A DNA stretch of 64,000 nucleotides from a virus (lineage: Duplodnaviria > Caudoviricetes): IMG/VR virus record IMGVR_UViG_3300020440_000014, positions 1 to 64,000 of that record. One strand, 5' to 3'. Positions 8,625-50,068 of the stretch are shown one piece after another. The notes beneath the pieces are model-generated. The model worked only from the letters and a program-made list of their open reading frames with translations, did not search any database and had not been told where the DNA came from. Numbering within the stretch: position 1 is the first letter of the stretch; every line of letters begins with the position of its first letter. The translations under genes and the position numbers were made by a program.

Positions 8625-9073
8625 TTTCTTTTAGGTAATATTTCTTCTTCAGTTAGAATTCTAAATTTCATTTTTCTATCATCACAATACTCTTTCGCCA
8701 TTTTAAACTTTTCTTGATTTATTACATAAGTATTTACAGCATTGAAATAGTATTTCGTCTTTCTTTCTGGTGTTTTAGGTGGGAATAATTGTTTCTTTGG
8801 TTTAACTTCGATGATTTCTCTAATAATTTGTTTGTCTTTGTTTATATACTTTATATAGAAATCAGGAAAGTATCTATGGACTTTTTTATCGATAGGACTT
8901 CTATAAGGTATGATAAGTTCTTCTGAACCCCATTCAAGTATTGCATCATTATTATCACACCAGACCATGAATCGTCTTTCTAGAAGAGAACGATAGAAGA
9001 TTTTTGTTGGGTCGCCTTTATATTTTTTGTAGTTCTTTGGTTTGAATCTGCCGCTATATGGTTTTTTAGACAT
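8621..9073 (-). CDS. gp4: gp4-like head completion nuclease (TnsA-like fold)
   Basis: 'YSGRFKPKNYKKYKGDPT.I.YRS', 'WGSEE..IPY.SP', 'RYFPDF', 'IEVKP', 'F.ILTE'. Confidence 0.92.
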   Translation of the reverse strand: MSKKPYSGRFKPKNYKKYKGDPTKIFYRSLLERRFMVWCDNNDAILEWGSEELIIPYRSPIDKKVHRYFPDFYIKYINKDKQIIREIIEVKPKKQLFPPKTPERKTKYYFNAVNTYVINQEKFKMAKEYCDDRKMKFRILTEEEILPKRK

Positions 9074-30662: not shown

Positions 30663-31904
30663 ATGGCTAACGACATTTATATAAAACATAACTTCGCACA
30701 AACGCCTGACGGAAGTTTTCAACAACCATATATACATCAGGTATCAGTCGATAGTCAAACACCTCTTGAGAGTCAAACTCAAATTGTTGCTCAAAGAATA
30801 GCACAACAGCCTGCTATTGCACAACAACCTTCTAGAGTTTCAACTCAACAACAAAATACGGTTTCTGCTCAATACACATCTCAGATTCAACAAAATCAAC
30901 CTTATACATTTCAAACACTATTACAAAATGTAAATCGTCAGGTATCGTTAAGAGATGTAGATAGACAAATATCTTATCGAACTCCTTCGCCTTCACCTTC
31001 AACGTATCAAGTGGTTGAAAATGTTCAACAACCAAATACAAGACCGGTACCATCATCAGTAGCAGCACGATATGCCAACTCAGTACAGAATCCTTTTGTA
31101 GATGATGCACATATATTTGTTTCATATACTGCTAGACGGCCTTCTCCTTATATATCACAACAACCTGTAATAGTGCAAACACCAGGCAATGCTCCTTCTA
31201 CACAACAAACGATTAGAGAAGAAATATATGTTGCAAATGCAACTAAAAGAACTGAACTACACCGCAGTGTGTCTGCTTCAAGTTCATTAGCCAATCCTGG
31301 TACAATAAACAATTATATGCACGTTAGTATATTTGAAAATGATGATGATTATAACTTTTATTTCCGTGTTAGAACTGATTCAAATGCTAATGGTTCTAAA
31401 TTACTTCAATTAGAATCAGGTCAAACAACAATGCCTACATCAGGTGTCGGAACCATAGTGGTCTTTTTTCGATTTCCAGCTGGTTCTATTCCTAGTTCAT
31501 GGGCTATAGACGTTGGCCCTATTTCGGTGACAACATCTGGTGCAGGTTCAGGCGGTAATATTACCTTATCTGATGGCGGTTCTCATCCTAGTTCAACATA
31601 TGATATGGGAAATGTTGTTCAGTTTGACGGCAGTTCTAGTTTTGCTACTTGGTCTGAAGATAGTTTTGGTATGAATGTGCAAGCCACTGGCAGTCTAAGT
31701 TCTTTAAGCGGCGCCGGAACATATGTAATAGGTGGGTCTTTTCCTGTGAGATTTAGATTTAATCATTCAGACAATAGAGGAACTTTAACACAAACTTATG
31801 CAGTAAATATGTACAATCAATTTAATGTAACGTATAATCAGTCGCCTTCACCATCACCAGGATTCCAACCTTTCGGTAGTTTCAACCCAGGTGATATAAG
31901 GTAA
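30663..31904 (+). CDS. Gln/Pro-rich repeat protein with internal beta-rich domain (module 1, protein A1)
   Basis: N-terminal 'DIYIKH', Q/P-rich first 200 aa, beta-rich C-terminal half, ends '...DIR'. Confidence 0.7.
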   Translation: MANDIYIKHNFAQTPDGSFQQPYIHQVSVDSQTPLESQTQIVAQRIAQQPAIAQQPSRVSTQQQNTVSAQYTSQIQQNQPYTFQTLLQNVNRQVSLRDVDRQISYRTPSPSPSTYQVVENVQQPNTRPVPSSVAARYANSVQNPFVDDAHIFVSYTARRPSPYISQQPVIVQTPGNAPSTQQTIREEIYVANATKRTELHRSVSASSSLANPGTINNYMHVSIFENDDDYNFYFRVRTDSNANGSKLLQLESGQTTMPTSGVGTIVVFFRFPAGSIPSSWAIDVGPISVTTSGAGSGGNITLSDGGSHPSSTYDMGNVVQFDGSSSFATWSEDSFGMNVQATGSLSSLSGAGTYVIGGSFPVRFRFNHSDNRGTLTQTYAVNMYNQFNVTYNQSPSPSPGFQPFGSFNPGDIR

Positions 31905-31909
31905 ATGAT

Positions 31910-32548
31910 ATGAGTAATCAACAACAACAATGGCCTTTTATTACGTCAACTCCGACTCCAGCTAGATATGCTAATAGTGGTCAACAGCAAAATCCATACC
32001 CAGCAATTCGTCAAGCGCCTTATACTTTTCAAAACCCAGGTCCATCGATTGTTCGAACACCTGTATTAACACAGGTACAAACTCAACAGGATTATCGAAC
32101 ACCATTTACATATCGACATACAGAGAACAGGCAAACCATAGTTCAGGTTACAGCGCAACAACCTACACTTTATCAAACTCAACAACCGATAATATATCAA
32201 GGTCGACAACCTACTCCTGCTATAAGACAAAATCCTGTCATATATCAAAACCCGATTATAGTTCAGTCGCCTGCTATTGTTCAAACACCTCAAAGAAATA
32301 GTGTTCAACAGAGAAATAGTTTTCAACAATCTTATAGAACTCAAACACCATATACTTTTAGACAACCTTCAATTGTTCAACAAACAAATACAGGCACTAG
32401 ACCAATTCAACAGGTTGCTAAAGTTAAAGCAGTATACGTCAAGACAGCGGTTGGTGTACAAAAACTTGATGAAATCTTTGTTAAAAAAGATAGTAGTACC
32501 GTTGAGAAAATACACCAATCAGTACCTACTGCTCAATTAAACAAATAA
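31910..32548 (+). CDS. Gln/Pro/Tyr/Arg-rich repeat protein (module 1, protein B1)
   Basis: Recurring 'QP..YQ', 'QNP.I', 'TPFTYR'; C-terminal 'VYVKT...IFVKK' motif. Confidence 0.7.
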   Translation: MSNQQQQWPFITSTPTPARYANSGQQQNPYPAIRQAPYTFQNPGPSIVRTPVLTQVQTQQDYRTPFTYRHTENRQTIVQVTAQQPTLYQTQQPIIYQGRQPTPAIRQNPVIYQNPIIVQSPAIVQTPQRNSVQQRNSFQQSYRTQTPYTFRQPSIVQQTNTGTRPIQQVAKVKAVYVKTAVGVQKLDEIFVKKDSSTVEKIHQSVPTAQLNK

Positions 32549-33295: not shown

Positions 33296-34729
33296 ATGGC
33301 AACGGTTATTCAAATCAAAAGAAGTACAGGAGCTTCCGCACCAGCAGTCTCAGACTTAGCTGAGGGCGAATTAGCGTATGTACAAGATAGGTCTAACGAT
33401 GGTGCTTCTGCTAAATTGTATATTGAGTCTGTAGACTCAGGCGGCTCAGCTGCTATTCACGAAATCGGTGGTAAATACTATACTGATATCGTAGATGGTG
33501 CTGCTCCAACACCTGCTAACTTTGTAGTAGGTAATGGTTCATCAGCTGGTGCATCTTTACAACTTAGAGAAGATTCAGACAACGGTTCAAACTTTGTTGC
33601 TCTTAAATCACCTGACTCAGTAGCAAGTAATTTAACATTTACTTTGCCTGGTTCAGATGGTTCAGCAAACCAAGTTTTAGCAACTAATGGTTCTGGAACA
33701 CTTTCATTCCTATCAACAACTTCAACACTTGCAGGTGCAACTGATTCAGATATTTCATCACCAACATCAGGACAAATTCTTGTTCATGACGGTAGTGATT
33801 CATTTGATAACGTATCACTTTCAGGTGACGTAACAATGGCATCAAATGGTGCCGTAACTATCGCTAACACAGCAGTCGAAACAGCAATGATTGCTAACGA
33901 TGCGGTAACTTTAGACAAAATTGCAGATGCAGTAATTATTTTAGAATCAGAAGGTATTGGTAACAACGATGTTGATACTGGATTCCCAACAGCAGCTGCA
34001 GTTAAAGACTATGTTGATTCTCAAGTAACAGCTCAAGACCTTGATTTTCAAGGTGATTCAGGTGGTGCTTTATCAATAGATTTAGATTCAGAAACTTTAT
34101 CTATTGTTGGTACTGCTAATGAAATCGTAACAGCTGGTTCTGGTAATCAAATTCAAATTGGTCTTCCTGACAACGTGACTATTGGCGGTAACTTAACCGT
34201 TAGTGGTACAACTACAACCGTTAACTCAACAACGGTTTCAATTGCTGACCCAGTGTTTGAAATCGGTGATGATGGTTCAGATGACAACCTAGACAGAGGT
34301 ATCAAATTTAAGTACAACTCAGGTGGTGCTAAAGTTGGTTTCTTTGGTATGGACGATTCAGATGCTAAATTTAAGTTTATTGCAGATGCAACAGACTCAA
34401 GTTCAACATTCTCAGGTTCATTAGGTAATGTTGCTTTCGGTAATATCGAAGGTTCAGGTCTTGCTCTTTCAGGTTCAATTACTTCAGTAGATGGTTCTGC
34501 TCCTACAGCAGGTCAGATACTAATAGGTAATGGTTCTAACGGAGATATGGAACTTGCAACATTAACTGCTGGCGAAGGTCTTGACGTATCAAATGCAGAC
34601 GGTTCAATAACATTATCAGCTGAAGACGCTACAAGCACCAACAAAGGTATAGCAAGTTTTGCAAGTGCAAACTTTACCGTAAGTTCAGGTGCTGTTACCA
34701 TTACTGCTATCGATGGAGGCACATTTTAA
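33296..34729 (+). CDS. Tail fibre protein
   Basis: N-terminal 'MATVIQIKRS....P...L.EGELAY', 'GSANQVLATNGSGTLSF', 'DRGIKF', C-terminal 'IDGGTF'. Confidence 0.8.
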   Translation: MATVIQIKRSTGASAPAVSDLAEGELAYVQDRSNDGASAKLYIESVDSGGSAAIHEIGGKYYTDIVDGAAPTPANFVVGNGSSAGASLQLREDSDNGSNFVALKSPDSVASNLTFTLPGSDGSANQVLATNGSGTLSFLSTTSTLAGATDSDISSPTSGQILVHDGSDSFDNVSLSGDVTMASNGAVTIANTAVETAMIANDAVTLDKIADAVIILESEGIGNNDVDTGFPTAAAVKDYVDSQVTAQDLDFQGDSGGALSIDLDSETLSIVGTANEIVTAGSGNQIQIGLPDNVTIGGNLTVSGTTTTVNSTTVSIADPVFEIGDDGSDDNLDRGIKFKYNSGGAKVGFFGMDDSDAKFKFIADATDSSSTFSGSLGNVAFGNIEGSGLALSGSITSVDGSAPTAGQILIGNGSNGDMELATLTAGEGLDVSNADGSITLSAEDATSTNKGIASFASANFTVSSGAVTITAIDGGTF

Positions 34730-34758
34730 TTAGTGTTTTTAATCAATAGGAGGAAAAT

Positions 34759-35586
34759 ATGGCAACATTAATTCAGTTCAAAAGAAGTTCTACACAAAAC
34801 TCAGTTCCCGCTGTTAGTGATTTATCAGTAGGGGAACTTGCAGTTAATACTTATCATGGTAGATTCTATACTGAGAAAAATGATGGTTCGGCAGCAGTCG
34901 TAGAAGTAGGGTCAAATCCTTCTTCATTAACCATTAATGACGCTATTACTTTCCCAACTAGTGATGGTTCAGCAAATCAAGTATTGCAAACAAACGGAAG
35001 TGGTACATTATCTTTTGCATCACAACCAAGTTCTGGAATAGTTATCTTTAGATACACTATTACTAGCAATACAACCGCCATAACAGGTAACGATGATGAT
35101 AGTAATTCATTATCATATAGTCCTGGTTCAGAACAAGTATATCTTAATGGTGTACTTTTAGAAGATGGTGGTGCTGACTATACGGCAACTAATAGTTCGA
35201 CCGTCACTTTATCGGAAAATGCGATAAACGGTGACTTAGTAACTATAGTAGCGATAACCTCAGCTGCAAATCTAGTACAAGGGTTTTTTACCCAATCTAC
35301 TTTTTCAGCAACAACAGCAAACCAAGTGTTATCATCTAATGCGATTGCCAACAAGGGAATCAAATATGTGATAAACGCTACACATGCTAGTGCTGGTACA
35401 CATGCAGCTGAAGTACTTTTAATCAACGATGGTTCGAGTGCATATTTCGTACAATACGGCGATGTATTTTCGAATTCATCATTGTTTTCATTGAGTGCAG
35501 ATATTGATTCAGGTAATATGAGACTTCTCATTACGCCTGCCAATACTGCTACTACCGTGGACACATTTCAAATCAGACATAGTTAA
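34759..35586 (+). CDS. Tail fibre protein
   Basis: 'MATLIQFKRS....P...L.VGELAVN', 'DGSANQVLQTNGSGTLSF', C-terminal beta-sandwich domain. Confidence 0.8.
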   Translation: MATLIQFKRSSTQNSVPAVSDLSVGELAVNTYHGRFYTEKNDGSAAVVEVGSNPSSLTINDAITFPTSDGSANQVLQTNGSGTLSFASQPSSGIVIFRYTITSNTTAITGNDDDSNSLSYSPGSEQVYLNGVLLEDGGADYTATNSSTVTLSENAINGDLVTIVAITSAANLVQGFFTQSTFSATTANQVLSSNAIANKGIKYVINATHASAGTHAAEVLLINDGSSAYFVQYGDVFSNSSLFSLSADIDSGNMRLLITPANTATTVDTFQIRHS

Positions 35587-35599
35587 GGAGATATAAGAC

Positions 35600-36010
35600 A
35601 TGGCATTATCAAGAGGATTTAAAATCGCTGAATTGATTCGTCATTTATCATATGACTCCACCAATGATGTAATTGTTACTGCAAAGAAAACTCAAGATAA
35701 GAACAAGAAAAGTGGTGCAGAAACAAAAACTGCCACTGACCAGTTCTCTTTAGATTCTTTTGCACATGCAGACTTTAGAGCTGCTAGATACATCATTGCA
35801 ATGTCAAGAGGAAGTGATTTCCATTCAACTGAAGTTGTGTTAGTTCATGACGGAAGTGCGGTAACATTAACTCAATATGGTACATTAAAAGACGCTAATT
35901 TAGCTACAATAGACGCTGACATCTCAGGTTCAAACGTAAGGTTGTTAGTCACTCCAGCGAGTGCTACATCAACCGTGATTAAATTTGATAGAACCTTAGT
36001 AGACGCTTAA
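35600..36010 (+). CDS. Fibre-tip-like beta-sandwich protein
   Basis: 'EVVLVHDGS.....QYG.......I.ADI.G.NVRLL.TPA' paralogous to the C-termini of 34759 and 36085. Confidence 0.7.
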   Translation: MALSRGFKIAELIRHLSYDSTNDVIVTAKKTQDKNKKSGAETKTATDQFSLDSFAHADFRAARYIIAMSRGSDFHSTEVVLVHDGSAVTLTQYGTLKDANLATIDADISGSNVRLLVTPASATSTVIKFDRTLVDA

Positions 36011-36030
36011 ATAATAATTTACATTATTTT

Positions 36031-36058
36031 AAAGGGGGCATTTCGCCCCCTTTTTTTT
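36031..36058 (+). terminator. Rho-independent terminator
   Basis: AAAGGGGGC-ATTTC-GCCCCCTTT followed by a T-run. Confidence 0.85.
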
Positions 36059-36071
36059 AATCTTTAAAAAT

Positions 36072-36079
36072 CATAAATA
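36072..36079 (+). promoter_or_regulatory. Late promoter variant
   Basis: CATAAATA 5 nt before the 36085 ATG, right after the terminator. Confidence 0.5.
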
Positions 36080-36084
36080 GTACC

Positions 36085-36918
36085 ATGGCAACAAAAGCGA
36101 AATTTTATACAGACCTAGGTTTTCAGTCAGCATTATCTGCTCAAGTAGACGGAGATTTTACGGTTACAGGTAATTTAACCGTAAACGGAACAACTACAAC
36201 GGTCAATTCATCTACTACTTCTGTTACAGATAGTATGTTTGAATTAGCTAACTCAAATACTTCAGCTGATACATTAGATATTGGAATATATGGTAATTAT
36301 AACGATGGACTATCTGATGGTGGTGCAAGTGAATATACTGGTCTATTTCGTGATGCTTCAGATTCTACATGGAAATTATTCGATGGATTAGAAGTTGAAC
36401 CGACTACAAGTGTTAACATATCAGGAACAGGATATGCTTTAGCAGATTTACAAGTTGGTGATTTGAATGCTACTACATTAAATGTAACAAATTCTATTAC
36501 AGGTGCTAGTATAGCATATCCTACAAGTGATGGTACAAATGGACAAGTTCTTACAACAAACGGTTCAGGAACTTTAACATTTCAAGATGCTGGTGGTTTA
36601 GATAGTGGGTCAATTACAACTACGTCTACGTCTATAACAAACTTAGATACATTCTCAGCATCGACTTCAAGAGGTGGAAAATATACAATAACATTATCAG
36701 ATTCAACTTCAGGTGTTTATCAAACTACAGAAGTGCATATAATACATGACGGAAGTGCATCAAGTATGTCACAATTTGGTACGGTTTTGCAAGGTGGCAA
36801 CAACGAGCTCGCAACATTTTCTACAGATATCAATTCTGGTAACGTTAGATTAAGAATTACACCTGCTTCAACGAATTCTACGAAAATTTCTTTTAAAAAA
36901 ATTCTAATTGACGTGTAG
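36085..36918 (+). CDS. Tail fibre protein
   Basis: 'VTGNLTVNGTTTTVNS', 'DGTNGQVLTTNGSGTL.F', C-terminal beta-sandwich paralogue. Confidence 0.75.
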   Translation: MATKAKFYTDLGFQSALSAQVDGDFTVTGNLTVNGTTTTVNSSTTSVTDSMFELANSNTSADTLDIGIYGNYNDGLSDGGASEYTGLFRDASDSTWKLFDGLEVEPTTSVNISGTGYALADLQVGDLNATTLNVTNSITGASIAYPTSDGTNGQVLTTNGSGTLTFQDAGGLDSGSITTTSTSITNLDTFSASTSRGGKYTITLSDSTSGVYQTTEVHIIHDGSASSMSQFGTVLQGGNNELATFSTDINSGNVRLRITPASTNSTKISFKKILIDV

Positions 36919-36979
36919 GAAGAAGGCACATTTTACTAAATATTAGCGTCAATTGAACATTAAAGAGGACACATAAAAA

Positions 36980-37243
36980 ATGGCAACACAAAATTCATTT
37001 GTAATAGAGTATGGATTGACGGTTGGTTCAACCGAGGTGATAAACTCTTCTGGTAAATTACAATCTAGTGCGATTAGTGAGTTAGATACGGATAATCTTT
37101 CAGAGGGGTCAACGAATCAATATTTTTCAAACGCAAGAGCAAGAGGCGCAATTAGTCTAGCATCTGGCGAATCAAATCTTTCATACAACTCTACATCTGG
37201 TGAGTTGTCTTTACCATCGGTGAACGGAGGCACATTTAGTTAA
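36980..37243 (+). CDS. Small fibre-associated protein ending NGGTFS
   Basis: 'DTDNLSEGSTNQYF..ARAR' repeat unit; N-terminus similar to 37246. Confidence 0.65.
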   Translation: MATQNSFVIEYGLTVGSTEVINSSGKLQSSAISELDTDNLSEGSTNQYFSNARARGAISLASGESNLSYNSTSGELSLPSVNGGTFS

Positions 37244-37245
37244 AA

Positions 37246-39159
37246 ATGACAAGTAAGAATTTTATAATCAAAAACGGCCTTACCGTTGGAAACACAGAGG
37301 TCATAGATAGTTCAGGTAATATAACAGCAAGTGGTGTAGGTGCAGCTGTACAAGAAGCAATCGCTGATAAAATTGGTGGTATCATTCAAGGTTCAGGTTC
37401 AACAACCGTAACTTATGATGATGCAAACGATACAATTACCATTTCATCAACAGGAAAAACAGAAGAAGAAATACAAGACATAGTTGGCACTCAGATAGTA
37501 TCAAATGGTTCACATACAGGTGTTTCATTTGTTTATGATGATTCAACTGATGGTGGTATAAATGCTACGGTTTCATTATCATCTTTTAACACAGGCAACT
37601 TAGATGAAGGTGCTAACTTATACTATACCGATGCAAGAGCAGATGCTAGAATCGCAGCTGCAAGTACAAGTGACTTATCAGAAGGTTCAAACAAATATTA
37701 TACAGACGAAAGAGTAGATGATAGGGTTAACGCTTTAATCACAGCAGGTTCAAACATAACAACTACATATGATGACGCCGCTGGTACTTTGACTATCGCT
37801 GCTACAGAAGATAATCTTTCAAACAACGATACAGATGACCTTTCAGAAGGTACAACAAATCAATACTTTACTGAAGCAAGAGCAAGAAGTTCAATATCAG
37901 TTTCAGGCGACTTATCATATAACTCTACATCTGGTGTTATTTCATTTACAAACGATGCTGGTGATATAGAAAGTGTCACAGCAGGAGATGGTCTATCAGG
38001 TGGTGGTTCATCAGGAGCTGTCTCACTTGCATTAGATTTAAATGAATTAACAGACCAAGCAGTAGATGTCGCAAACGATAGTATTGCGATTATAGATGCA
38101 ACAGACAATTCTACCAAAAAAGATTTAATTAGAGATGTTGTCACAGGTATCGCTGGTACAGGTCTTGGTGCATCTTCAGGTGTTTTAAATGTTTCATTAG
38201 CATCATTTGATACAGGCAACTTATCTGAAGGTTCAAACAAATATTATACAGACGAAAGAGTAGACGACAGAGTTAATGCATTAATTACTGCTGGAACAAA
38301 TATCTCAACTTCATATGACGATGCAAACGGAACACTTACGATTAACTCTTCAGGTAAAACTGAAGAAGAAATCGAAGATATTGTAAACGGTTTAATAGTC
38401 GGTGGGACAAACATCACATCAACATACGATGACGGTGCTGGAACACTTACACTTGCTGGTCTATCAGATTCAGATATCAGAGGTTTAGTATCTGCTGGTG
38501 GTAATTTATCATACAATAGTTCAACAGGTGAATTCTCATTTACAGAAAGAACAGATGCAGAAGTCAGAGGACTTGTATCAGTCACAGATTCAGGCGGAGA
38601 TGGTTCACTTGCATATAATTCATCTACAGGTGTAATCACATACACAGGCCCAAGTGCATCAGAAGTCAGAGCTCATCTAAGTGCAGGAACTGGTGTAACA
38701 TATTCAAGTGGTGAATTTAGTATCGGTCAGGCAGTTAACACTAATAGTAATGTTACATTTAACAATGCAGTAATCGATGGTAACTTAACGGTTAATGGAA
38801 CAACAACATCAGTTTCATCAACAAATACTACAATCGAAGATGCATTAATCGAATTAGGGTCTGGTAACACAGGTGCTAACTCAAATGACCTTGGACTTAT
38901 CTTAGAGAGAGGAAGTACAGGTGATAATGGATTTATGGGTTGGGATGAAAGTGCCGATAGATTCGTAGTTGCGACAACAACTGCAACAGGTTCTTCAACT
39001 GGTGGACTAAGTTTATCTGAAGCAAACTTTAGAGCAAATCAGATAACAACAAGTTATGCATCAAATAGTGGTGGTGTAGCGAGAAACATATATCAATCAA
39101 CTTCTGCTCCGGGTAGTTCAGATGGACAAGTTGGCGATTTATGGATTTTATACTCTTAA
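37246..39159 (+). CDS. Tail fibre protein with internal repeats
   Basis: Several 'T.NL.EG..N.YYT..R' and 'GKTEEEI.DIV' repeats; C-terminal 'YQSTSAPGSSDGQVGDLWILYS'. Confidence 0.8.
   Translation: MTSKNFIIKNGLTVGNTEVIDSSGNITASGVGAAVQEAIADKIGGIIQGSGSTTVTYDDANDTITISSTGKTEEEIQDIVGTQIVSNGSHTGVSFVYDDSTDGGINATVSLSSFNTGNLDEGANLYYTDARADARIAAASTSDLSEGSNKYYTDERVDDRVNALITAGSNITTTYDDAAGTLTIAATEDNLSNNDTDDLSEGTTNQYFTEARARSSISVSGDLSYNSTSGVISFTNDAGDIESVTAGDGLSGGGSSGAVSLALDLNELTDQAVDVANDSIAIIDATDNSTKKDLIRDVVTGIAGTGLGASSGVLNVSLASFDTGNLSEGSNKYYTDERVDDRVNALITAGTNISTSYDDANGTLTINSSGKTEEEIEDIVNGLIVGGTNITSTYDDGAGTLTLAGLSDSDIRGLVSAGGNLSYNSSTGEFSFTERTDAEVRGLVSVTDSGGDGSLAYNSSTGVITYTGPSASEVRAHLSAGTGVTYSSGEFSIGQAVNTNSNVTFNNAVIDGNLTVNGTTTSVSSTNTTIEDALIELGSGNTGANSNDLGLILERGSTGDNGFMGWDESADRFVVATTTATGSSTGGLSLSEANFRANQITTSYASNSGGVARNIYQSTSAPGSSDGQVGDLWILYS
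37681..38264 (+). repeat. 38-nt exact direct repeat within fibre gene
   Basis: gaaggttcaaacaaatattatacagacgaaagagtaga at 37681-37718 and 38227-38264. Confidence 0.85.
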
Positions 39160-39196: not shown

Positions 39197-40060
39197 ATGG
39201 CAACAGGTTCACAAAAAGTAAAAACACCATCGGGTTGGAATAGTACTCGAGGTGCTTGGGTAAAAACAGGTGCAAGTACTTGGAAAGATGCAGACCAAAT
39301 CTACATCAAAACGCCTTCAGGTTGGAATAACGCATCTGGTCAAACAAGTGTTCAACAACCTTATCCATATATTGCAAATGCTCAGAATCCTGTAATTAGA
39401 AATAGACAAAATCCATATCCTTACATAGCAAATGCTCAGAATCCTGTAATCAGAGACGCTCAAGAGCCTAATATTAGAAGTGCTCAAGAGCCTAATATTA
39501 GAAGTGCTCAAGAACCTAATATTAGAGATGCAAGACAACCTGCTATATATCAAGTTAACGTGCCTTCTAGAAGTCCATTTACATATCAACACAGGTCACC
39601 GTTTACATATAGAAATCCGGTGAGTGCTCAAGAACCTAATATTAGAAATAGACAAACACCATTTACATATAGACACCCAGCATCTGCTCAAGAACCTAAT
39701 ATTAGAAATGGTCAAACACCATTTAGATACCCAGCAAATGGTCAAACGCCATTTAGATATCCTGCTAATGCAAGACAACCTGCTGGTTATAGAGCAAGTG
39801 CTAGACAACCATTTACATATCAAGCGCAATATAGAAGTCCATTTACGTATCGAGCAAGATATCCAGCTATTTACTCTTTTAGTTTTCAAAGCCCGTTTAA
39901 TCAAACTGACCCACAAGCTGATGGACAAACACCTTATAGAGCGTCAGCTCAACAACCTGCGATTGCTAGAAGTCCGTTTAGATATATAACGCCAGCTAGA
40001 CAACCATACTTTTATACATTCGGCGGTTTCGGCGGTTTCGGTGGTTTTAATATAAGGTAA
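39197..40060 (+). CDS. Pro/Gln/Tyr/Arg repeat protein (module 2, protein A2)
   Basis: N-terminal 'VKTPSGW..WVKT..W..IYIKTPSGW', then QEPNIRSA, SPFTY, QTPFRYPAN repeats; no Leu or Cys in 287 aa; ends 'GGFGGFGGFNIR'. Confidence 0.75.
   Translation: MATGSQKVKTPSGWNSTRGAWVKTGASTWKDADQIYIKTPSGWNNASGQTSVQQPYPYIANAQNPVIRNRQNPYPYIANAQNPVIRDAQEPNIRSAQEPNIRSAQEPNIRDARQPAIYQVNVPSRSPFTYQHRSPFTYRNPVSAQEPNIRNRQTPFTYRHPASAQEPNIRNGQTPFRYPANGQTPFRYPANARQPAGYRASARQPFTYQAQYRSPFTYRARYPAIYSFSFQSPFNQTDPQADGQTPYRASAQQPAIARSPFRYITPARQPYFYTFGGFGGFGGFNIR
39458..39529 (+). repeat. 3 x 24-nt tandem repeat (AQEPNIR[S/D])
   Basis: gctcaagagcctaatattagaagt x2 exact plus one variant. Confidence 0.9.
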
Positions 40061-40094
40061 ATGATATGAATAGTTTAAGTAGGAAAAAAATATA

Positions 40095-40817
40095 ATGCCA
40101 TCAGGAAGAAGAATAGTAGGCTCAAGAGCATCAGGTCAATCACCTGGTAATGTTGGAAATCCGTTTACTTATAATAATAGGCAGCCATTTACGTATCCAC
40201 ATTCCGTACAGGCTCGACAACCAAACATTGGTTCTGGTAGTTATCGAGCAAGATATCCTGCTAACGGTCAACAACCTGTTCCTTATATTGCTAATGGTCA
40301 AACACCATTTAGATACCCAGCAAGTTATCAAATACCATTTACATATAGAGCAAGTGCTAGACAACCATTTACATATAGAGCAAGTGCTAGACAACCATTT
40401 ACATATAGTCATAGGTCACCGTTCACATATAGACACCCAGCAAGTGCTAGACAGCCATCTACGTATCAACATAGGTCACCGTTTACATACAGAAATCCAG
40501 TAAACGGTCAAGAACCAAATATACGTGACGCAAGACAACCTAATATAGTTCAACAATCCAGAAACTATCAAATACCATTTACGTATCAACACAGGTCACC
40601 GTTTACGTATCAACATAGGTCGCCATTTACGTATCAACACAGGTCACCATTTACGTATCAACATAGAAGTCCTTCTACATATGCTAGACAAGGTCAGACA
40701 CCAACTACGTATCAACATAGAAGTCCTTCTACATATGCTAGACAAGGTCAGACACCAGTGATACGTTGGGATAATGACTTGGCTAATCAGTGGCCAGGTT
40801 CTCCTGTGACTGGATAA
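40095..40817 (+). CDS. Pro/Gln/Tyr/Arg repeat protein (module 2, protein B2)
   Basis: PFTYQHRS and PFTYRASARQ repeats; no Lys or Cys, one Leu, four acidic residues in 240 aa. Confidence 0.75.
   Translation: MPSGRRIVGSRASGQSPGNVGNPFTYNNRQPFTYPHSVQARQPNIGSGSYRARYPANGQQPVPYIANGQTPFRYPASYQIPFTYRASARQPFTYRASARQPFTYSHRSPFTYRHPASARQPSTYQHRSPFTYRNPVNGQEPNIRDARQPNIVQQSRNYQIPFTYQHRSPFTYQHRSPFTYQHRSPFTYQHRSPSTYARQGQTPTTYQHRSPSTYARQGQTPVIRWDNDLANQWPGSPVTG
40334..40408 (+). repeat. 2.5 x 30-nt exact tandem repeat (PFTYRASARQ)
   Basis: accatttacatatagagcaagtgctagaca repeated; a rotated copy of the same 30-mer occurs in A2 at 39791-39820. Confidence 0.9.
40575..40757 (+). repeat. 4 x 24-nt (PFTYQHRS) repeat plus 52-nt duplication
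   Basis: Units at 40575, 40599, 40623, 40647; exact 52-mer at 40652-40703 and 40706-40757. Confidence 0.9.
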
Positions 40818-40851
40818 ATAAGTTAGTACAAGCTAATAAAAACTTTATATT

Positions 40852-42459
40852 ATGAAAAGACTCACGTTAAAAGAAGCCCAAGAACTATTTAAAGACTACG
40901 ATTCAGAAAAATTTCCTAATTCAACTACAACTCAAATTGGTCATTTTGATATCGTCAAAGATAAACAAATAGGTCAAAATAAAGAACAGACAATTGAAGT
41001 TTTACATTGGATATATGAAAATGTAACTAGTTATCCAAAAATTGTTAAATGGAAAGAAGTTAGAAAAATATTTCAAACCGAATTATCTCATAATAATTAT
41101 AAATTAAGTAGTTGGGGCAAACTCAAACATCCATCTTTTATCTACAACGCATTATTACCAAAAGTCTATACGTCAGAACCTGAAGTAGCTGCTCCAGGTT
41201 TTTTAGGTTTTGGTACTAAGAACCTAAAAGACGAACACGATGACTTATCTCATTTATCAGATGTTACAAGAGAAACAGATTTAGTAAAATCATCTTACTA
41301 TCATGCTGCTAAAGCACACTGGTTAGTGCAAGACATAAGAAAAAACGGATTATGGAATAGACCGCAAGGCAAAGTATATAAAGATGGAGATAATCGTTTT
41401 AGACTTATGATGCATCCAGGTTCTGTTCGTTCACAGGTCATTGAAATGTTAGATGATGATGATTTAGAACTTATGATTTATGATAAACATAATTTATTTC
41501 CAGATATACAACCTACGACTCTTGAGTTTATGCTCGATGAAATAAAAACAAGAATTTCAGAAATAGAAGAGAATGATGCCCTTTCACGTAAGTTGCATAC
41601 AGATGTTTCTTTTCATCTTTCAGCTGGAGGATATATTGAAATGAGTTCATCTTTAGCACATATGCATAATATGGATTTTAGAACTGAGGTTTATAAATTT
41701 AATAGACAAGTGACCGAATTATCTTCAGGTAAACCTATTACAATCTATGTTGGTTATGATAGTAGACATGAAAACATATCTGAACAAGCAAAAAGATTAA
41801 TTGATTTAAGAATAGCACAAAGTCTCGGTGGAGGAGATATAACAGGTCTCTTCAAGTGGTTTAAACCTGAAGTCAAGTTATTAGATATTTCAAAAATACC
41901 AGAGTATACAAGAGAATATGCAAACCAGTCTACTGAATTCACTTATAGTAGATTTTTGATACCTTATCTAGAAAATTATGAAGGATTCAGTATGTTTGTT
42001 GACAATGATATTTTATTCAGAGAAACGCCTTTACCCTTTTTATATTTTTTAAATCCAGAAGACGCTGTAGCTTGTGTACAATACAATTTTGATAAACACG
42101 ATGAAACAAAAATGGATGGCGAAAAGAACGTCTCTTATCCTAAAAAGCTTTGGTCTTCATTAATGGTTTTCAATAATAGTCATGAAGATTGTAAGAAGTT
42201 AACTCCTGAGGTAATCAATACAGAATCAGGTAAATATCTACATCAATTTGAATGGACAAATGCAATCAGTGAAATACCAGAATCACATATTGTCACTGAA
42301 GGATTTGATACGTTAAAAGATAAACCACATGCATTTGCAATACATTATACAAGAGGTGGTCCTTGGATAAAAAACATGAATTTAGACAACCTAAATATGC
42401 TTGACGAATATCAAAACATGATTAATAAAATACAAGTAGAGGAAAACTTTTTAAAATAG
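40852..42459 (+). CDS. Fusion: ParB/Srx-like 'HPG' domain + GT-A glycosyltransferase (GT8-like)
   Basis: C-terminal 'IYVGYDSR', 'TEFTYSRFLIPYL...G.SMFVDND.LF', 'YPKKLWSSLMVFN', 'IHYTRGGPW'; N-terminal 'AKAHWL...PQG...HPGSVR'. Confidence 0.85.
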   Translation: MKRLTLKEAQELFKDYDSEKFPNSTTTQIGHFDIVKDKQIGQNKEQTIEVLHWIYENVTSYPKIVKWKEVRKIFQTELSHNNYKLSSWGKLKHPSFIYNALLPKVYTSEPEVAAPGFLGFGTKNLKDEHDDLSHLSDVTRETDLVKSSYYHAAKAHWLVQDIRKNGLWNRPQGKVYKDGDNRFRLMMHPGSVRSQVIEMLDDDDLELMIYDKHNLFPDIQPTTLEFMLDEIKTRISEIEENDALSRKLHTDVSFHLSAGGYIEMSSSLAHMHNMDFRTEVYKFNRQVTELSSGKPITIYVGYDSRHENISEQAKRLIDLRIAQSLGGGDITGLFKWFKPEVKLLDISKIPEYTREYANQSTEFTYSRFLIPYLENYEGFSMFVDNDILFRETPLPFLYFLNPEDAVACVQYNFDKHDETKMDGEKNVSYPKKLWSSLMVFNNSHEDCKKLTPEVINTESGKYLHQFEWTNAISEIPESHIVTEGFDTLKDKPHAFAIHYTRGGPWIKNMNLDNLNMLDEYQNMINKIQVEENFLK

Positions 42460-42461
42460 TA

Positions 42462-42490
42462 TTGTAATTAAAGACCACTTAGTATATAAT
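42462..42490 (+). promoter_or_regulatory. sigma70-like promoter
   Basis: TTGTAA (42462-42467), 17 nt spacer, TATAAT (42485-42490), then AGGAG and ATG 42501. Confidence 0.45.
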
Positions 42491-42500
42491 AGGAGTTATT

Positions 42501-43052
42501 ATGAATATGTTAATTTATTGTGAAAATGGAAATCTAACCATCAGAAAATCAAATGGTTTAGAATATACCTTTAATAATACAGATAAACCAAATTTTGGTT
42601 TTGAGTATGATGTCATCATTTACGATGACATAGAAGTAAAGATTTTAGAGTGGAAAGAAAATGTTCCTTTTGATAAACAAGAACATATAACTCTAAATGA
42701 AACAGAAATCGATGCTATTGAGCAGTACATAGAAAATTCAGAACCGCCTGAAGGCCATTCGTTAAATCAACAATATAGCAATCAACTATGTAATATGACA
42801 AACAATTATTGTCAAGAACAGGCTCAAAATTATGGTTTTAATGACTTATTGGAAGTTATGATAGCAGCAAGAGAGGGTTCTTGTCACCCATTTAGAATTA
42901 ATGCAAGAAGAACCTTAGAATATTATGATGCAGTCTGGTCGGTATATGATAATCTTATGCAAGAGATAATCAATACAAGAGAAGATGTGTTAAGAGAATA
43001 TGAACATTATGCTTCTGCTATACCAACTCCAGTGAGACCACCTCAAGCTTAA
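42501..43052 (+). CDS. Probable tail-fibre assembly chaperone
   Basis: C-terminal 'AQNYGFNDL.......HPF...A......YDAVW..Y..L......IP' resembles Tfa-like chaperone ends. Confidence 0.5.
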   Translation: MNMLIYCENGNLTIRKSNGLEYTFNNTDKPNFGFEYDVIIYDDIEVKILEWKENVPFDKQEHITLNETEIDAIEQYIENSEPPEGHSLNQQYSNQLCNMTNNYCQEQAQNYGFNDLLEVMIAAREGSCHPFRINARRTLEYYDAVWSVYDNLMQEIINTREDVLREYEHYASAIPTPVRPPQA

Positions 43053-43055
43053 ACA

Positions 43056-43727
43056 ATGCAAGTCGAGTATATAGATGCTCCATTTAGCATTGAAAAATTA
43101 CCTTTAGATAAAATTTATGTAATTGACAATTATCTAGAAAAATCATTACATCATTTTTTTGACAAGTATATCACAAATGCTTCAATATGGTCTAAAACCA
43201 ATCAAGTCAATTCAATTAGCCCAACAGGTTTGCCTCATCATAGTTTTTGGGGAGGAAGTTTTTTTAGAACAAAAAATGGTTTGAAGACTATCGAAACAGA
43301 CATGGAACCAAGGCATACTTATTTTGCTGATTTTTTAGATAAAAGAATACAAACCGATTTTGGTTTCGAATGGATTAGATTTCAATATATGGGTTTAAAT
43401 TCACAAACACACGGACTACAAGGAACTACCCATTCAGATTGCCCAAAAGAAGATGAATGGAATCTTTCTTTTTTATATTATTACAATAGATATTGGAATA
43501 AAGATTGGGGTGGTGTATTGAGATTTTACGATGAGCATCAACAAGGGCTAGATGGTCGTGATGAACACATACAGAATCATCAAATTGCAGAAGTTGAATT
43601 TAAACCCAATCGATTATTAATGTTTGACGGAAGAATACCACACGGTGCAGATGCGCCGAATGAAAATGCAAGATATATGGATAGAAGGTCAGTTGTGTTG
43701 AGAGGAGATGAAGTATGCCTACTATAG
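43056..43727 (+). CDS. 2OG-Fe(II) oxygenase (prolyl-hydroxylase-like)
   Basis: HxD 'HSD', 'WNKDWGGVLRF', 'FKPNRLLMFDGRIPH', distal 'R.S'. Confidence 0.85.
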   Translation: MQVEYIDAPFSIEKLPLDKIYVIDNYLEKSLHHFFDKYITNASIWSKTNQVNSISPTGLPHHSFWGGSFFRTKNGLKTIETDMEPRHTYFADFLDKRIQTDFGFEWIRFQYMGLNSQTHGLQGTTHSDCPKEDEWNLSFLYYYNRYWNKDWGGVLRFYDEHQQGLDGRDEHIQNHQIAEVEFKPNRLLMFDGRIPHGADAPNENARYMDRRSVVLRGDEVCLL

Positions 43728-44554
43728 ATTTTATCTCATTCACCGAAGAAACGGTAAGATTAGTAAAACCAGTTTTAGCTAAAAAAGCTCAACCTGAATG
43801 GTGGAAGAAATCAAAAATAGCTGATATCACACATGGCGAAATAGCCAGAACTATTAGAAGTTGTCCTGCGATGGACGATTGGTTAAAGTCTGGTTGGATT
43901 ATTGAAACATTACATGATATAGATGTGATACAAGGAGATAATAATGGTACATTTAATTCTGAATTTAAAGTAACAACATTGCCTCATCATGCTGTAGCAT
44001 CGCCAAGCCATCCCGAAACACAATTAAATAATTTTTTACCATACGGTTTAAACGATAGAATCAAGTCTGCTTTTAAAATCAGACAACCATGGAATGTTAT
44101 AACTCCGCCTGGTTATTCATGTTTATTCTTAGACCCATTTCTTACTAACAACATACACTTTACGGTATGGCAAGGAATTATAGATACAGATAAATTTAAT
44201 GTAAATAACGATAATGCTCAAATGATATTTTATCCTAAAGTTAATCATAGTTTTACGATAAAAAAAGGCACAGCATTATGTCAAATTATACCTTACAAAA
44301 GAGAAGTCTGGACTGCAACGTATCAAGTACATTCTAGTAAATCTTATATAGAAAATAGAAATAAAGTTACCAAAAATGTTGAAAATACATCTATGGAAGA
44401 ATATAACAAAGATTCTAAATATGAAGTAGACAACGCATTAGGCGGCGCAAGTCCGTATAGAAGAGAAGGACAATGGCAAGAAAAAGGTAAATTGTATAAA
44501 GAAAGTGAACCGCCACCAGAGTGCCCATATCACGGTAAAATAGAAAATGATTAA
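43715..44554 (+). CDS. Conserved marine-phage protein of beta-barrel type, function unknown (DUF6065-like)
   Basis: 'CPAM.DWL..GW', 'PW.V.TPPGYSCLF..P', 'GIIDTD', 'KGT.LCQIIPYKRE.W'. Confidence 0.55.
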   Translation: MPTIDFISFTEETVRLVKPVLAKKAQPEWWKKSKIADITHGEIARTIRSCPAMDDWLKSGWIIETLHDIDVIQGDNNGTFNSEFKVTTLPHHAVASPSHPETQLNNFLPYGLNDRIKSAFKIRQPWNVITPPGYSCLFLDPFLTNNIHFTVWQGIIDTDKFNVNNDNAQMIFYPKVNHSFTIKKGTALCQIIPYKREVWTATYQVHSSKSYIENRNKVTKNVENTSMEEYNKDSKYEVDNALGGASPYRREGQWQEKGKLYKESEPPPECPYHGKIEND

Positions 44555-45221
44555 GTTGATGTTTCCAGCTTTTGTTTGTGTCAAAGAATTTCTTGATAAA
44601 GATTCAGAACAATATCCAAATATGACAAGAGAGTATTTTAAGATACTCAAAGATGAAATGGATAACATGCAAAAGTTAGACCCTAAAGGTAGAAATGTTT
44701 CTAATTCAGGAGGTTGGCAGTCTAACGATGGTATAGAATCTAATCCTATATTTGTTAAAGCATATCGTACAATTAAGAGAGTCGTAGCAAATGAATTGGT
44801 GCCTGCTTTAGGTTTAGAAAAAAATTCTTTTAATGTTGTAATGCATAACTCTTGGGGTAATATGAATTTCAATGGCAATTTCAATAAACCTCATCTACAT
44901 AATGGCTGTTTTTATTCTGGTGTCATGTATATTAAAGCTGATGGTGATGAAGGAAATTTAGTATTTGTAGATACAAATCATAAAATAGCAGGTGTATTTC
45001 CACCAAATCCGATGATGAAAGAATCGGAGATATATTCACCTAGAACAGGCGACTTATATTTGTTTCCTAGTGGTTTGATGCATATGGTAGAACCGAATCT
45101 AACAGATAAAACCAGATATAGTATATCATTCAACTTAGAAGTTAATGGTGGTCAACGAAGAGAAACTATTCAAAATGAACATTTAAAGTATGAAGTGAAT
45201 GATGAGGGTGACTGCTTTTGA
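44547..45221 (+). CDS. Putative 2OG-Fe(II) oxygenase (TIGR02466-like)
   Basis: 'SN.GGWQS', 'SWGNMN..G.FN.PHLH...YSGVMYI', 'LYLFPS.L.H.V', 'RYSISFN'. Confidence 0.85.
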   Translation: MIKLMFPAFVCVKEFLDKDSEQYPNMTREYFKILKDEMDNMQKLDPKGRNVSNSGGWQSNDGIESNPIFVKAYRTIKRVVANELVPALGLEKNSFNVVMHNSWGNMNFNGNFNKPHLHNGCFYSGVMYIKADGDEGNLVFVDTNHKIAGVFPPNPMMKESEIYSPRTGDLYLFPSGLMHMVEPNLTDKTRYSISFNLEVNGGQRRETIQNEHLKYEVNDEGDCF

Positions 45222-45227
45222 TAAATA
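45220..45227 (+). promoter_or_regulatory. Late promoter variant
   Basis: GATAAATA 6 nt before the 45234 ATG. Confidence 0.4.
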
Positions 45228-45233
45228 GTATAT

Positions 45234-45497
45234 ATGGACAATATAGTTATAGACCCAACATTACTTTGGAATTTAATTCTTTCTCTTATCATAGTGCCTG
45301 TGGGTGTTCTTGTTAGAACTATTCTAGCAGAACAAAAAAGAATGGATATTCTCATTAATAAAACAAGAGAAGAAATAGCAAAAGATTATGTAACTAGAGA
45401 CCAGTTAGAAAAGGATTTAGAGAAATTAATTTCTACGGTAGAAAGAATGGACGAAAAACTTGACAGAATCCAGACCAAAACTTATTTTCAAGACTAA
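45234..45497 (+). CDS. Small membrane-anchored coiled-coil protein
   Basis: N-terminal hydrophobic helix 'LLWNLILSLIIVPVGVLV' followed by heptads. Confidence 0.7.
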   Translation: MDNIVIDPTLLWNLILSLIIVPVGVLVRTILAEQKRMDILINKTREEIAKDYVTRDQLEKDLEKLISTVERMDEKLDRIQTKTYFQD

Positions 45498-46179
45498 AGA
45501 AGATTTTTTACAAAGTCAATCACTCAGAGAAAATTTTCAAAATTGCCAAGGAGAAGTAACTCGATTTGATACAGAGTCTTTGCCTGATTGGTACAAAGAG
45601 CATTTTGAATTATTACTCAGTCATTATAATATAGAACCTACATACGATAGTTTTCTATATCATTTCGAAAAATATCATTTAACACCTTATGATTGTTCTA
45701 AGTATCTTTGGTTAAAAGATAGTGTTAAAAAAGAAAACACGTATTGTCCTAGTCAGTCTTTTTATAATCCATCAGAATTTGATAGTAAAGAATTATTTCA
45801 TGCCGGTAGATTAAAGTCTTTGGTCACATATGAAATGAATGTTGGTTTATATGATATATGGACTCGCAAAGACCATCCAAAAGATTGGATAGAATGGTCT
45901 TGGATAAAACCCATGACTTATGAAGAGTGGTTATCTGAATATCATTTTAATGAAAATATAATACATTATCATTACATGAAAGATAGAAAAGTTATATGTG
46001 TTTTAGTTCAAAAATCTAATAAACCCGGTCTTCGTGAAAAATATGGCGACCTAATAGATAGAGTTTACAATGATGCTAGATTTACGGTAGATGGTATTGT
46101 CTACTCTTATGATGATTTGAAAACTAAACGATATTGTATTGATTCACAATTAGAACCAAAAATCGAGTTTATGGAATGA
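45460..46179 (+). CDS. Hypothetical protein with third ParB/Srx-like 'H[PA]G' domain (TTG start uncertain)
   Basis: 'SKYLWLKDSVKKENTYCPSQ...LFHAGRLK' aligns with 6540 and 40852. Confidence 0.6.
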   Translation: MTESRPKLIFKTKEDFLQSQSLRENFQNCQGEVTRFDTESLPDWYKEHFELLLSHYNIEPTYDSFLYHFEKYHLTPYDCSKYLWLKDSVKKENTYCPSQSFYNPSEFDSKELFHAGRLKSLVTYEMNVGLYDIWTRKDHPKDWIEWSWIKPMTYEEWLSEYHFNENIIHYHYMKDRKVICVLVQKSNKPGLREKYGDLIDRVYNDARFTVDGIVYSYDDLKTKRYCIDSQLEPKIEFME

Positions 46180-48930: not shown

Positions 48931-49332
48931 ATGAGTAAAACAGACGAGAAGTTAAATGAACTTCTGAACATTGACACTGAAATAAAGAAAGAAACAAAGT
49001 TGGTCAAAGTTCCAGAAAGAGCAAAAAATATAGAAACAGATTATCGATATGCTCGTGAGAATCTCTACAATCTCGTGGAGAGAGGACAAGATGCAATCGA
49101 TGGTATCTTAGAACTATCCAAAGAAACTGAACACCCGAGAGCCTATGAAGTTGCAGGTCAATTGATTAAGACCGTTGGTGAAACAGCAGAAAAATTATTG
49201 GACATACAAAAGAAAATTAAAGATTTAGAAAAAGAAGACGAACAGAAAGTAGGTACTCAACACAATCATTTATATGTGGGTTCTACTTCTGAATTACAAA
49301 AGTTTTTGAAAACAAAGAATGTTAAGGAATGA
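48931..49332 (+). CDS. gp16: Terminase small subunit gp16
   Basis: 'DYRYARENLY.L.E.G..AI', 'HPRAYEVAGQLIK', 'YVGST.ELQK.L'. Confidence 0.93.
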   Translation: MSKTDEKLNELLNIDTEIKKETKLVKVPERAKNIETDYRYARENLYNLVERGQDAIDGILELSKETEHPRAYEVAGQLIKTVGETAEKLLDIQKKIKDLEKEDEQKVGTQHNHLYVGSTSELQKFLKTKNVKE

Positions 49333-50068
49333 GAACGTATTAAAGTTCTTTAAAACTGCATATTGTTTTACTGATTCTCAGAGAAATACCGCATACGAAA
49401 ATTGGATATCTGAGAATGTCAAAGATAAGATAGTAATAGATTTGGGCGCAGGTTCAGGCATACTATGTTATCTTGCAGTTAAATATGGCGCTAAAAAAGT
49501 ATATGCCTTAGAAAGAAGAGGTAGACTCATTCATAGAATGAAGGAAACGTTAGGCGACACCATAGAGTATATACATGCAGATTTATTAGAAACAGAATTG
49601 CCAGAGTGTGATATTTATTTACATGAGTGGTTATCATCTAATTTTTGGAATGAGAAAAAATTTCTTATGAACTTTCATGAAAAAGAAGATAAAGAATTAG
49701 AATTTGGTCACATACTAGATTTAGTAGAGTATGCGGAGAAGAATAAGTTTATACACAAATTATACCCTAATATCGTTGAGTTGTCAAGTATACAAGGCAA
49801 ATCTACAGCAGAGTGGGTAGATATAGAGTTACAATCACATGGTGAACATTCTAGACAATTTCTGCAAGAACATTATGGTGATTTAACAAAATGTCCTATA
49901 TATAGAAACGAAATACATGATAAAAAAGAAATATGGACAGGTCATATAAAAGATTTGAAGTATAGAAAAGTTGATGGCTTTCTAGGTTGGAAGTTATCTT
50001 TTGATGGTAAATACGAGTTATCAAACCACATTTCTGTATCTCATTGGGGATTAAAAAGTGAAACCTAA
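49319..50068 (+). CDS. SAM-dependent methyltransferase with PRMT (protein arginine methyltransferase) signature motifs
   Basis: 'D..R..AY', motif I 'VIDLGAGSGIL...A...GAKKVYALE', double-E loop 'DIYLHEWLSSNFWNE', C-terminal 'SHW' (THW-like). Confidence 0.8.
   Translation: MLRNENVLKFFKTAYCFTDSQRNTAYENWISENVKDKIVIDLGAGSGILCYLAVKYGAKKVYALERRGRLIHRMKETLGDTIEYIHADLLETELPECDIYLHEWLSSNFWNEKKFLMNFHEKEDKELEFGHILDLVEYAEKNKFIHKLYPNIVELSSIQGKSTAEWVDIELQSHGEHSRQFLQEHYGDLTKCPIYRNEIHDKKEIWTGHIKDLKYRKVDGFLGWKLSFDGKYELSNHISVSHWGLKSET

Follow-up and report, generated by a model that had tools for sequence, protein, structure and literature searches.

Among the genes of marine T4-like phages that still lack an explanation, oxygenases and glycosyltransferases rank with the commonest, and the locus described here raises the question of what a row of such enzymes does directly behind a pair of repeat genes. 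The locus occupies positions 39197 to 46179 of a 64,000-nucleotide stretch of DNA (the window), which is the first 64 kb of the 72.8-kb IMG/VR record IMGVR_UViG_3300020440_000014. The record is about 40% complete and belongs to an uncultured marine T4-like myophage. In the large terminase, this phage is 57% identical to Phage C48C1 (Kyanoviridae) and about 45% identical to cyanophages. An earlier reading of the letters, referred to below as the original prediction, had proposed that two repeat proteins, A2 and B2, are the substrates of the enzymes encoded behind them, and had offered as an alternative that the repeats are cores of a ribosomally synthesized and post-translationally modified peptide (RiPP). 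We find that A2 and B2 are most likely the two chains of one long antiparallel fibre shaft, and that decoration of this fibre by the enzyme row is plausible.

Module pairing and tips of the repeat chains

Chain A of the window, A2 (39197..40060, + strand), consists of a 50-residue N-terminus, about 224 residues of repeat modules and a short Gly/Phe tail. Chain B, B2 (40095..40817, +), consists of about 223 residues of modules followed by a conserved C-terminal motif. A tblastn search with A2 recovered 218 viral loci, of which 80 were kept for comparison, and 54 distinct A/B pairs were used for the repeat statistics. The 50 N-terminal residues, which include two KTPxGWN motifs, are nearly identical across A proteins, and B proteins have in common a C-terminal RWD..QWPxxP motif (also written RWD..QWPxTP). 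Recovery at so many loci with these ends conserved shows that both are real genes. Total lengths of the A and B proteins in relatives range from about 206 to 774 residues. The modules of A2 are bounded by prolines and are 6, 8 or 10 residues long, and proline-to-proline spacings take almost only these values. With one proline per module, neither A2 nor B2 shows periodicity of the extensin or collagen type (Ser-Pro(3-5), Gly-X-Y). Weak matches of the repeats to 'Cementoin' were below the cut-off, probably reflect composition, and were discarded.

When the end domains were trimmed and the repeat parts measured, partner chains proved to be closely matched in length. The correlation between A and B is 0.976 over the 54 pairs, across a range of 190-550 residues, and the median difference is 6 residues as opposed to 108 with permuted partners; 44 of the 54 pairs agree within 15 residues. 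Repeat parts in the window are 224 (A2) and 223 (B2) residues long, compared with 370 and 359 in its closest relative. Placed on a tree of the glycosyltransferase (GT) proteins encoded next to the repeats, eight independent sister pairs show that both lengths shift together (r 0.97, p 6e-5).

The match extends to the individual modules, provided that the two chains are read in opposite directions. A string of module lengths taken from A read from N- to C-terminus matches that from B read from C- to N-terminus; in the window, the first 17 modules of both chains are 10, 8, 10, 8, 8, 8, 8, 12, 8, 6, 6, 8, 6, 6, 8, 10 and 10 residues long. The antiparallel module-length score exceeded all 200 shuffles in every one of the 54 pairs, and the fraction of coinciding proline boundaries was 0.92 in the antiparallel arrangement, 0.50 in the parallel one and 0.38 after shuffling. 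Facing modules are also of opposite type, with aromatic xTY modules opposed to polar NIR, ASA or VSA modules. Such opposition was found in 1684 of 1804 aligned 6- or 8-residue modules (93%), as compared with 55% in random pairs of equal length. The notion that B is a collinear copy of A was tried and abandoned, the in-register identity being no better than that of a circular permutation.

Because the modules match in length and oppose in type, the A and B chains most likely zip together in antiparallel orientation, and A2 and B2 would form a single long shaft. In such a fibre, the N-terminus of A and the C-terminus of B would lie together at one end, presumably the site of attachment to the virion, and the C-terminal tip of A would lie at the opposite end. 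The repeat sequences argue that A2 and B2 are neither loose substrates nor RiPP cores. As far as our searches of the literature went, a pairing rule of this kind (equal module lengths, opposite types, antiparallel) has no described counterpart. If the duplex is confirmed, it would represent a novel way of making fibres whose length can be adjusted, and might serve as a scaffold in protein design.

Two further features of the repeat genes were noted. A second Gln/Pro-rich low-complexity pair, A1/B1, is present in the fibre module of the window (30663-31904 and 31910-32548, +), and A2-like matches also occur at this upstream position in relatives. A test of the mirror rule on A1/B1 gave no signal (proline boundaries 0.30, shuffles 0.35). 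In some relatives, cited here by locus number, A and B are separated by about 300 nt (L007/L008, where the gap is 11431-11750, and L023, L031 and L045). The B repeat part of such relatives appears too short (in L007, 415 residues for A and 328 for B), and a tblastn match spans the gap in frame; a mis-called start or an interrupting in-frame stop may account for the short B in these relatives.

The distal end of chain A is exchangeable. Among the 54 distinct A proteins, 23 carry the short Gly-rich tail seen in the window, 12 end in unrelated globular domains and 19 end in a Hint domain of about 170 residues that starts with GGG|CF and ends with VHN. Hint matches in A orthologs reached 26.8 bits with TIGR01445 (cut-off 24.5) and 1.2e-7 with Intein_splicing. 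One example is encoded on the + strand at L041:10001-12322 (residues 605-764), and others are found in L010, L019, L022, L028, L038-L040, L044, L054, L070-L074, L077, L079 and L080. The closest relative of the window, L039, has a Hint tip and A2 does not; the tree requires at least 6 changes of tip type. The terminal His-Asn is followed by F, Y, G, M, I or R, in place of the +1 Cys, Ser or Thr of canonical splicing. For this reason the tip is best regarded as a domain of the bacterial intein-like (BIL) or Hedgehog kind, suited to cleavage, and not as a true intein. It resembles described BIL and Hedgehog Hint domains (PMC7765530) in its Gly-Gly|Cys-Phe start, its His-Asn end, its occurrence in a hypervariable protein and its lack of a +1 nucleophile, and differs from them in its position, as the tip domain of a repeat fibre protein from a phage. 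Of all post-translational steps, Hint cleavage, a predicted activity, alone finds support in the sequences themselves, and A2 of the window is without it. In the exchangeable tip, which can be a Hint domain, such fibres may have a means of altering their distal end.

Composition of the enzyme row

The original prediction described nine genes in one orientation, and all nine open reading frames (ORFs) are present on the + strand at the coordinates given in this report, with intergenic gaps of -38 to 41 nt. They are part of a longer run in which every gene from 36085 to beyond 53699 lies on the + strand with very short gaps. Directly upstream of A2 are three fibre-like genes with S/T/G/N-rich repeats (36085-36918, 36980-37243 and 37246-39159, +), which are kept in relatives and have modules in common with fibre genes of C48C1. 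Downstream of the row are gp13/14/15, terS, terL, sheath and other structural genes in T4 order. The row is part of the late fibre/neck operon. The order fibres-A-B-GT-o42501-ox1-o43715-ox2-membrane protein-gp13 is kept in every related locus that reaches so far, and the row is intact in 74-77 of the 80 loci, the remaining contigs ending early. Row genes overlap or are separated by short gaps in relatives, and their products are 40-70% identical, a range comparable to that of structural genes. No match to the region was found by DNA search of 50,697 phage records, and tblastn of A2 and o42501 against phage records was likewise negative, with the proviso that the low-complexity filter may hide A2; a repeated search for A2 in four whole records, with a positive control run, gave no match. 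A search for related loci using the GT fusion alone also found none.

The distribution of late-promoter-like motifs points to joint expression. T4-type late promoters would be expected to appear as ATAAATA in intergenic DNA, just upstream of structural genes. Within the window, ATAAATA occurs at 36073, 40814, 45221 and 46179, each time just ahead of a gene; the copy at 36073..36079 (+) precedes the fibre genes that lead into A2, and that at 40814..40820 (+) precedes the enzyme genes. Among distinct relatives, 27 of 36 have the motif in the 60 nt ahead of A, 11 of 37 have it ahead of the GT gene and 15 of 40 ahead of the membrane-protein gene, and none has it before B, o42501, ox1, o43715 or ox2 (background 1.9%). 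From this pattern we infer that production of the enzymes most likely occurs late and alongside that of A and B. A strong terminator-like hairpin is present at 36031-36053; scans for sigma-70 promoters and terminators performed no better than on shuffled sequence. Most + strand ATAAATA motifs in the window are intergenic and just upstream of the start of a structural gene (positions noted: 21967, 28825, 32554, 33149, 36073, 40814, 45221, 46179, 51653, 54238, 56884 and 60974), although their total count is not above chance.

The first gene behind B2 (40852..42459, +) encodes an HPG N-domain fused to a GT8-type retaining glycosyltransferase. In its AF2 model (pLDDT 83), residues 295-535 adopt a GT-A Rossmann-like fold, with VIA Z scores of 16.0 for 3tzt, 15.5 for LgtC and 14.8 for 6mw8, followed by GlyE (14.5), glycogenin (14.2), PBCV-1 A64R (12.0) and R699 (9dyt; 10.8). 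The GT domain also filled the lists of fold matches, which included a Foldseek search with the model. A DxD motif, D384-N-D386, is invariant in 32 orthologs. Pfam PF01501 does not match the window protein at E 0.1, and is precomputed on several orthologs that are 47-51% identical; in a profile search for relatives of the GT, only close family members were among the matches listed. The modelled fold does not allow the acceptor to be read, since protein-acting and lipopolysaccharide (LPS)-acting enzymes tie. The HPG N-domain is homologous to ORF 6540-7313 (-) (BLASTP 2e-8, hhalign probability 96%) and matches a 256-residue uncharacterised phage protein in BFVD (TM 0.68). ORF 6540-7313 comes after a CTP_transf_3 cytidylyltransferase of the CMP-sugar synthetase type (7300-8052, -) and a HAD hydrolase (8007-8624, -), so the HPG domain is found twice beside sugar-nucleotide enzymes. 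Judging from these genes, the phage may activate a sugar of its own. Beside the same sugar genes, 8621-9073 (-) encodes a 150-residue protein with a TnsA-like endonuclease N-terminal domain (E 1e-22).

Two members of the row are 2-oxoglutarate (2OG)-Fe(II) oxygenases. The first, ox1 (43056..43727, +), belongs to PF13640 (37.1 bits, curated cut-off 27), a family of prolyl 4-hydroxylase (P4H) type. Its HxD..H..R signature is intact, with H126, D128, H196 and R210 invariant in 28 orthologs. Its designation as prolyl-hydroxylase-like stands as far as family and triad are concerned, but the likeness to P4H itself is weak: the best solved relative, prolyl 4-hydroxylase 6t8m, is a profile match at E 0.004. 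Action of ox1 on peptidyl proline would be a candidate activity. A lead from the 'FlmC family' of NCBIfam was dropped at 39 bits (cut-off 240). That family name denotes a 2OG oxygenase, and the FlmC of Caulobacter is described as cytidylyltransferase-like (PMC7591256). The second enzyme, ox2 (44547..45221, +), is a putative oxygenase that exceeds the cut-offs of TIGR02466 (85.4 bits, cut-off 62.5) and PF13759 (70.9, cut-off 27). Its closest structures, 3bvc and 2rg4, are uncharacterised.

Interspersed with the oxygenases are two proteins that are harder to place. The product of o42501 (42501..43052, +; 183 residues) is restricted to the clade and gave no match in Pfam, PHROGs, NCBIfam, PDB profiles or cultured phages. 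Its label as a fibre chaperone was not confirmed: no HMM matches it, and the sole lead, a weak one from the ESM-Atlas, connects it at 0.87 to a cluster in which 25% carry Caudo_TAP_N, a link to tail-fibre assembly proteins. The product of o43715 (43715..44554, +; 279 residues) has a dUTPase-like fold and a disordered tail containing Cys and Pro. Although the pLDDT of the model is only 69, its top 23 VIA rows all belong to the dUTPase/dCTP deaminase superfamily (Z 9.1-4.4, next 3.3), and Foldseek gave a match to a dUTPase-type fold at E 1.5e-3. A motif-III-like GIIDTD is invariant, the other four of the five dUTPase motifs were not identified, and Pfam dUTPase matches 2 of 32 orthologs, at E 0.15. 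Its earlier assignment as DUF6065-like (PF19541) was not confirmed: Pfam gives no match for the window protein and one at E 0.026 for 1 of 32 orthologs, and the DUF6065 lead in the Atlas covers just 11% of one neighbouring cluster.

The row closes with a gene for a small membrane protein (45234..45497, +), which has its own ATAAATA at 45221. In the 87-residue product, a single hydrophobic stretch (about residues 10-31) precedes a charged helical part, consistent with a single-pass protein with a coiled coil; in nearly all relatives the protein is 86 residues long. ORF 45460-46179 (+), which lies between this gene and gp13 and would encode 239 residues from a TTG start, overlaps the preceding gene by 38 nt and has no family match. 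It had been described as a third HPG gene, a claim that comparison with the HPG proteins does not sustain (BLASTP E 0.32, hhalign probability 27%). The ORF is peculiar to the window phage: it is missing from 80 of 80 related loci, where gp13 lies within 100 nt of the membrane-protein gene, and is not part of the conserved row. Taken together, the gene row is real and the observation behind the original prediction is partly confirmed. Seven of the nine gene labels hold fully or in part, including those of the HPG-domain/GT fusion (GT8 fold, invariant DxD and homology to 6540-7313), the second 2OG oxygenase and the membrane protein; the DUF6065-like and third HPG labels were not confirmed.

The row and the fibre

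What the row acts on is a separate question from the pairing of the chains. In the reading that we tentatively favour, at a confidence slightly short of even, A2 and B2 form a duplex fibre and the late cassette acts on it. The A/B pair would be transcribed late with a fixed row comprising the GT8 fusion, the 183-residue protein, the P4H-type oxygenase, the dUTPase-fold protein and the TIGR02466 oxygenase. The most likely role of such a row would be maturation or decoration of the fibre by hydroxylation and O-glycosylation, with A and B as the prime candidate substrate. A more specific version, which we regard as unlikely but worth stating, holds that the coded two-chain fibre is finished by proline hydroxylation by ox1 and O-glycosylation by the GT8 enzyme, and that in relatives the Hint domain would activate or cleave the C-terminal glycine of A, beside the N-terminus of B. 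If true, a bacterial virus would possess its own counterpart of procollagen maturation, carried out on a coded duplex that is not collagen.

The outgroup provides the main external comparison. In C48C1, the nearest complete outgroup, the module-sharing fibre genes run straight into gp13, and searches that included a positive control found no A-like repeats, GT fusion, o42501, ox1, o43715 or ox2. A single cassette would account for this pattern, although no more than one event is involved, and the linkage within the clade may likewise be that of one inherited block and count only once. The earlier interpretation is supported in part, namely in placing the repeats in a module of the virion-appendage type with enzymes locked to them, as the conservation of the row in relatives attests, but outside the clade the link is lost. 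Co-occurrence across genomes, which had been suggested as a check, is uninformative inside the clade, where nothing varies, and outside it speaks against dedication.

Several observations from other viruses weigh against action of the row on the fibre. Except for o42501 and the fused GT, all of the enzyme families occur elsewhere without such repeats. In P-SSM2, ox1-like genes accompany those for replication, and in S-SSM4 they occupy the terS-terL slot; ox2-like genes are present six times in Pelagibacter phage Mosig and four times in Sf-CH8, both of which are without the repeats. A query built from an alignment found 67 viral loci with distant relatives of ox1 (two single-sequence queries found none), and these loci lack the GT fusion, o42501, o43715 and module-type repeats, though an ox2-like gene is a neighbour in many of them; one apparent module repeat among them was a false positive, a TPSP linker. 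In unrelated viral contigs, a distant ox1-like gene is often accompanied by a TIGR02466 (ox2-like) gene within 1-4 kb (L104-L111, L119-L121, L132-L134 and L155-L156), and members of these families may act in pairs, independently of any repeat protein. Relatives of o43715 adjoin ribonucleotide reductase and nuclease genes in haloviruses and lie in an auxiliary metabolic gene island in Sf-CH8, and the modelled dUTPase fold suggests nucleotide rather than protein chemistry. Relatives of the GT domain sit among methyl- and sulfotransferases in Mosig.

These observations lend substance to a rival explanation that we rate as possible but doubtful, in which the row is unrelated to A and B and constitutes an auxiliary block that happens to be lodged in the fibre/neck region. 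The GT8 enzyme would then be directed at LPS or glycans of the host envelope, and the two oxygenases and the dUTPase-fold protein at small molecules and nucleotides. There is precedent in the finding of GT8 and other enzymes between fibre genes and gp14, which were read as modifiers of host O-chains (PMC7029224). The rival is consistent with the wide occurrence of ox1 and ox2 without repeats, often adjacent in unrelated contigs, with the dUTPase-like fold and halovirus gene neighbours noted for o43715 and its relatives, and with the HPG-domain paralog beside a CMP-sugar synthetase and a HAD phosphatase. An unrelated block, however, would have to be reconciled with a row that is not variable but equals the neck genes in synteny across all relatives, and that follows A and B in a late unit, mostly without a promoter motif of its own. 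It must also accommodate the confinement of o42501 and the fused GT to the A/B clade, and an outgroup that lacks both the repeats and the row.

Maturation by the row could instead concern virion proteins other than A and B, among them the neck proteins and the Ser/Thr/Gly-rich fibres encoded at 33296-39159, whose genes share its late operon and orientation. The structural neighbours of the GT domain include viral GT-A enzymes that glycosylate capsid proteins, with PBCV-1 A64R at Z 12. Such a target seems improbable to us: C48C1 keeps homologous fibre modules and the neck genes with none of the row, and the row is placed directly after A and B and not after the other fibres. The RiPP-like alternative, in which modification of the repeats as tandem core peptides would be followed by their proteolytic release, has in its favour that tandem near-identical units adjoin oxygenases. 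We reject it, and accord it almost no probability, since the repeats form strictly length-matched, mirror-complementary partners with conserved non-repeat ends, A proteins carry globular or Hint tips in relatives, and family searches of the row revealed no leader, protease, cyclase or exporter. A proposed contribution of arginine methylation by an enzyme encoded at 49319 finds no support either: a homolog of this methyltransferase was detectable in no more than 4 of the 36 related loci covering the slot between terS and terL. In the window this slot holds the methyltransferase gene itself (49319-50068, +), and in S-SSM4 the ox1-like oxygenase mentioned above. A duplex fibre acted upon by its own late cassette is the reading we carry forward; the fixed enzyme set is tied to one defined protein pair, which makes the question of substrate testable in E. 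coli with seven genes.

Relation to known systems

The host recognition cluster of pelagimyophages and cyanomyophages is hypervariable, and its GTs have been read as modifiers of host LPS (PMC7029224). It resembles the present locus in its T4-like site between baseplate/fibre genes and gp13/gp14, with GT8 and other enzymes among the fibres, and differs in that the row described here does not vary across the clade and goes with a single pair of genes.

Another parallel may be provided by the collagen-like fibres of Mimivirus, which are modified by the viral lysyl hydroxylase/glucosyltransferase L230 and the glucosyltransferase R699 (PMC9546862, PMC12279948). In both cases a virus encodes a repeat fibre together with its own 2OG oxygenase and GT-A transferases, and R699 is among the structural neighbours of the phage GT domain. 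The phage repeats, however, are not Gly-X-Y but have one proline per 6-10 residues and are encoded as a mirror pair by two genes, the phage oxygenase is of the P4H type and not a lysyl hydroxylase, the host is a bacterium, and any modification of the phage repeats is putative.

Chlorovirus PBCV-1 encodes a prolyl 4-hydroxylase as well as proline-rich repeat proteins of its own. It shares with the phage the combination of a viral P4H-type enzyme and virus-encoded, proline-containing tandem repeats, although its repeats are PAPK-like, unlike the QP-x-TY and EP-N-IR modules of the phage. In the cytoplasmic Skp1 pathway of protists, a prolyl 4-hydroxylase acts first and is followed by glycosyltransferases, including a GT8-fold alpha-galactosyltransferase, all directed at one proline of one protein. 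The likeness here lies in the pairing of a soluble P4H-type oxygenase with a GT8-fold transferase (6mw8), and P4H 6t8m is the best solved relative of ox1. The Skp1 enzymes differ in their restriction to that single residue, and the match of ox1 to P4H is a weak one. As a decoration system, the phage row would be a variant of the types represented by Mimivirus collagen and the Skp1 pathway.

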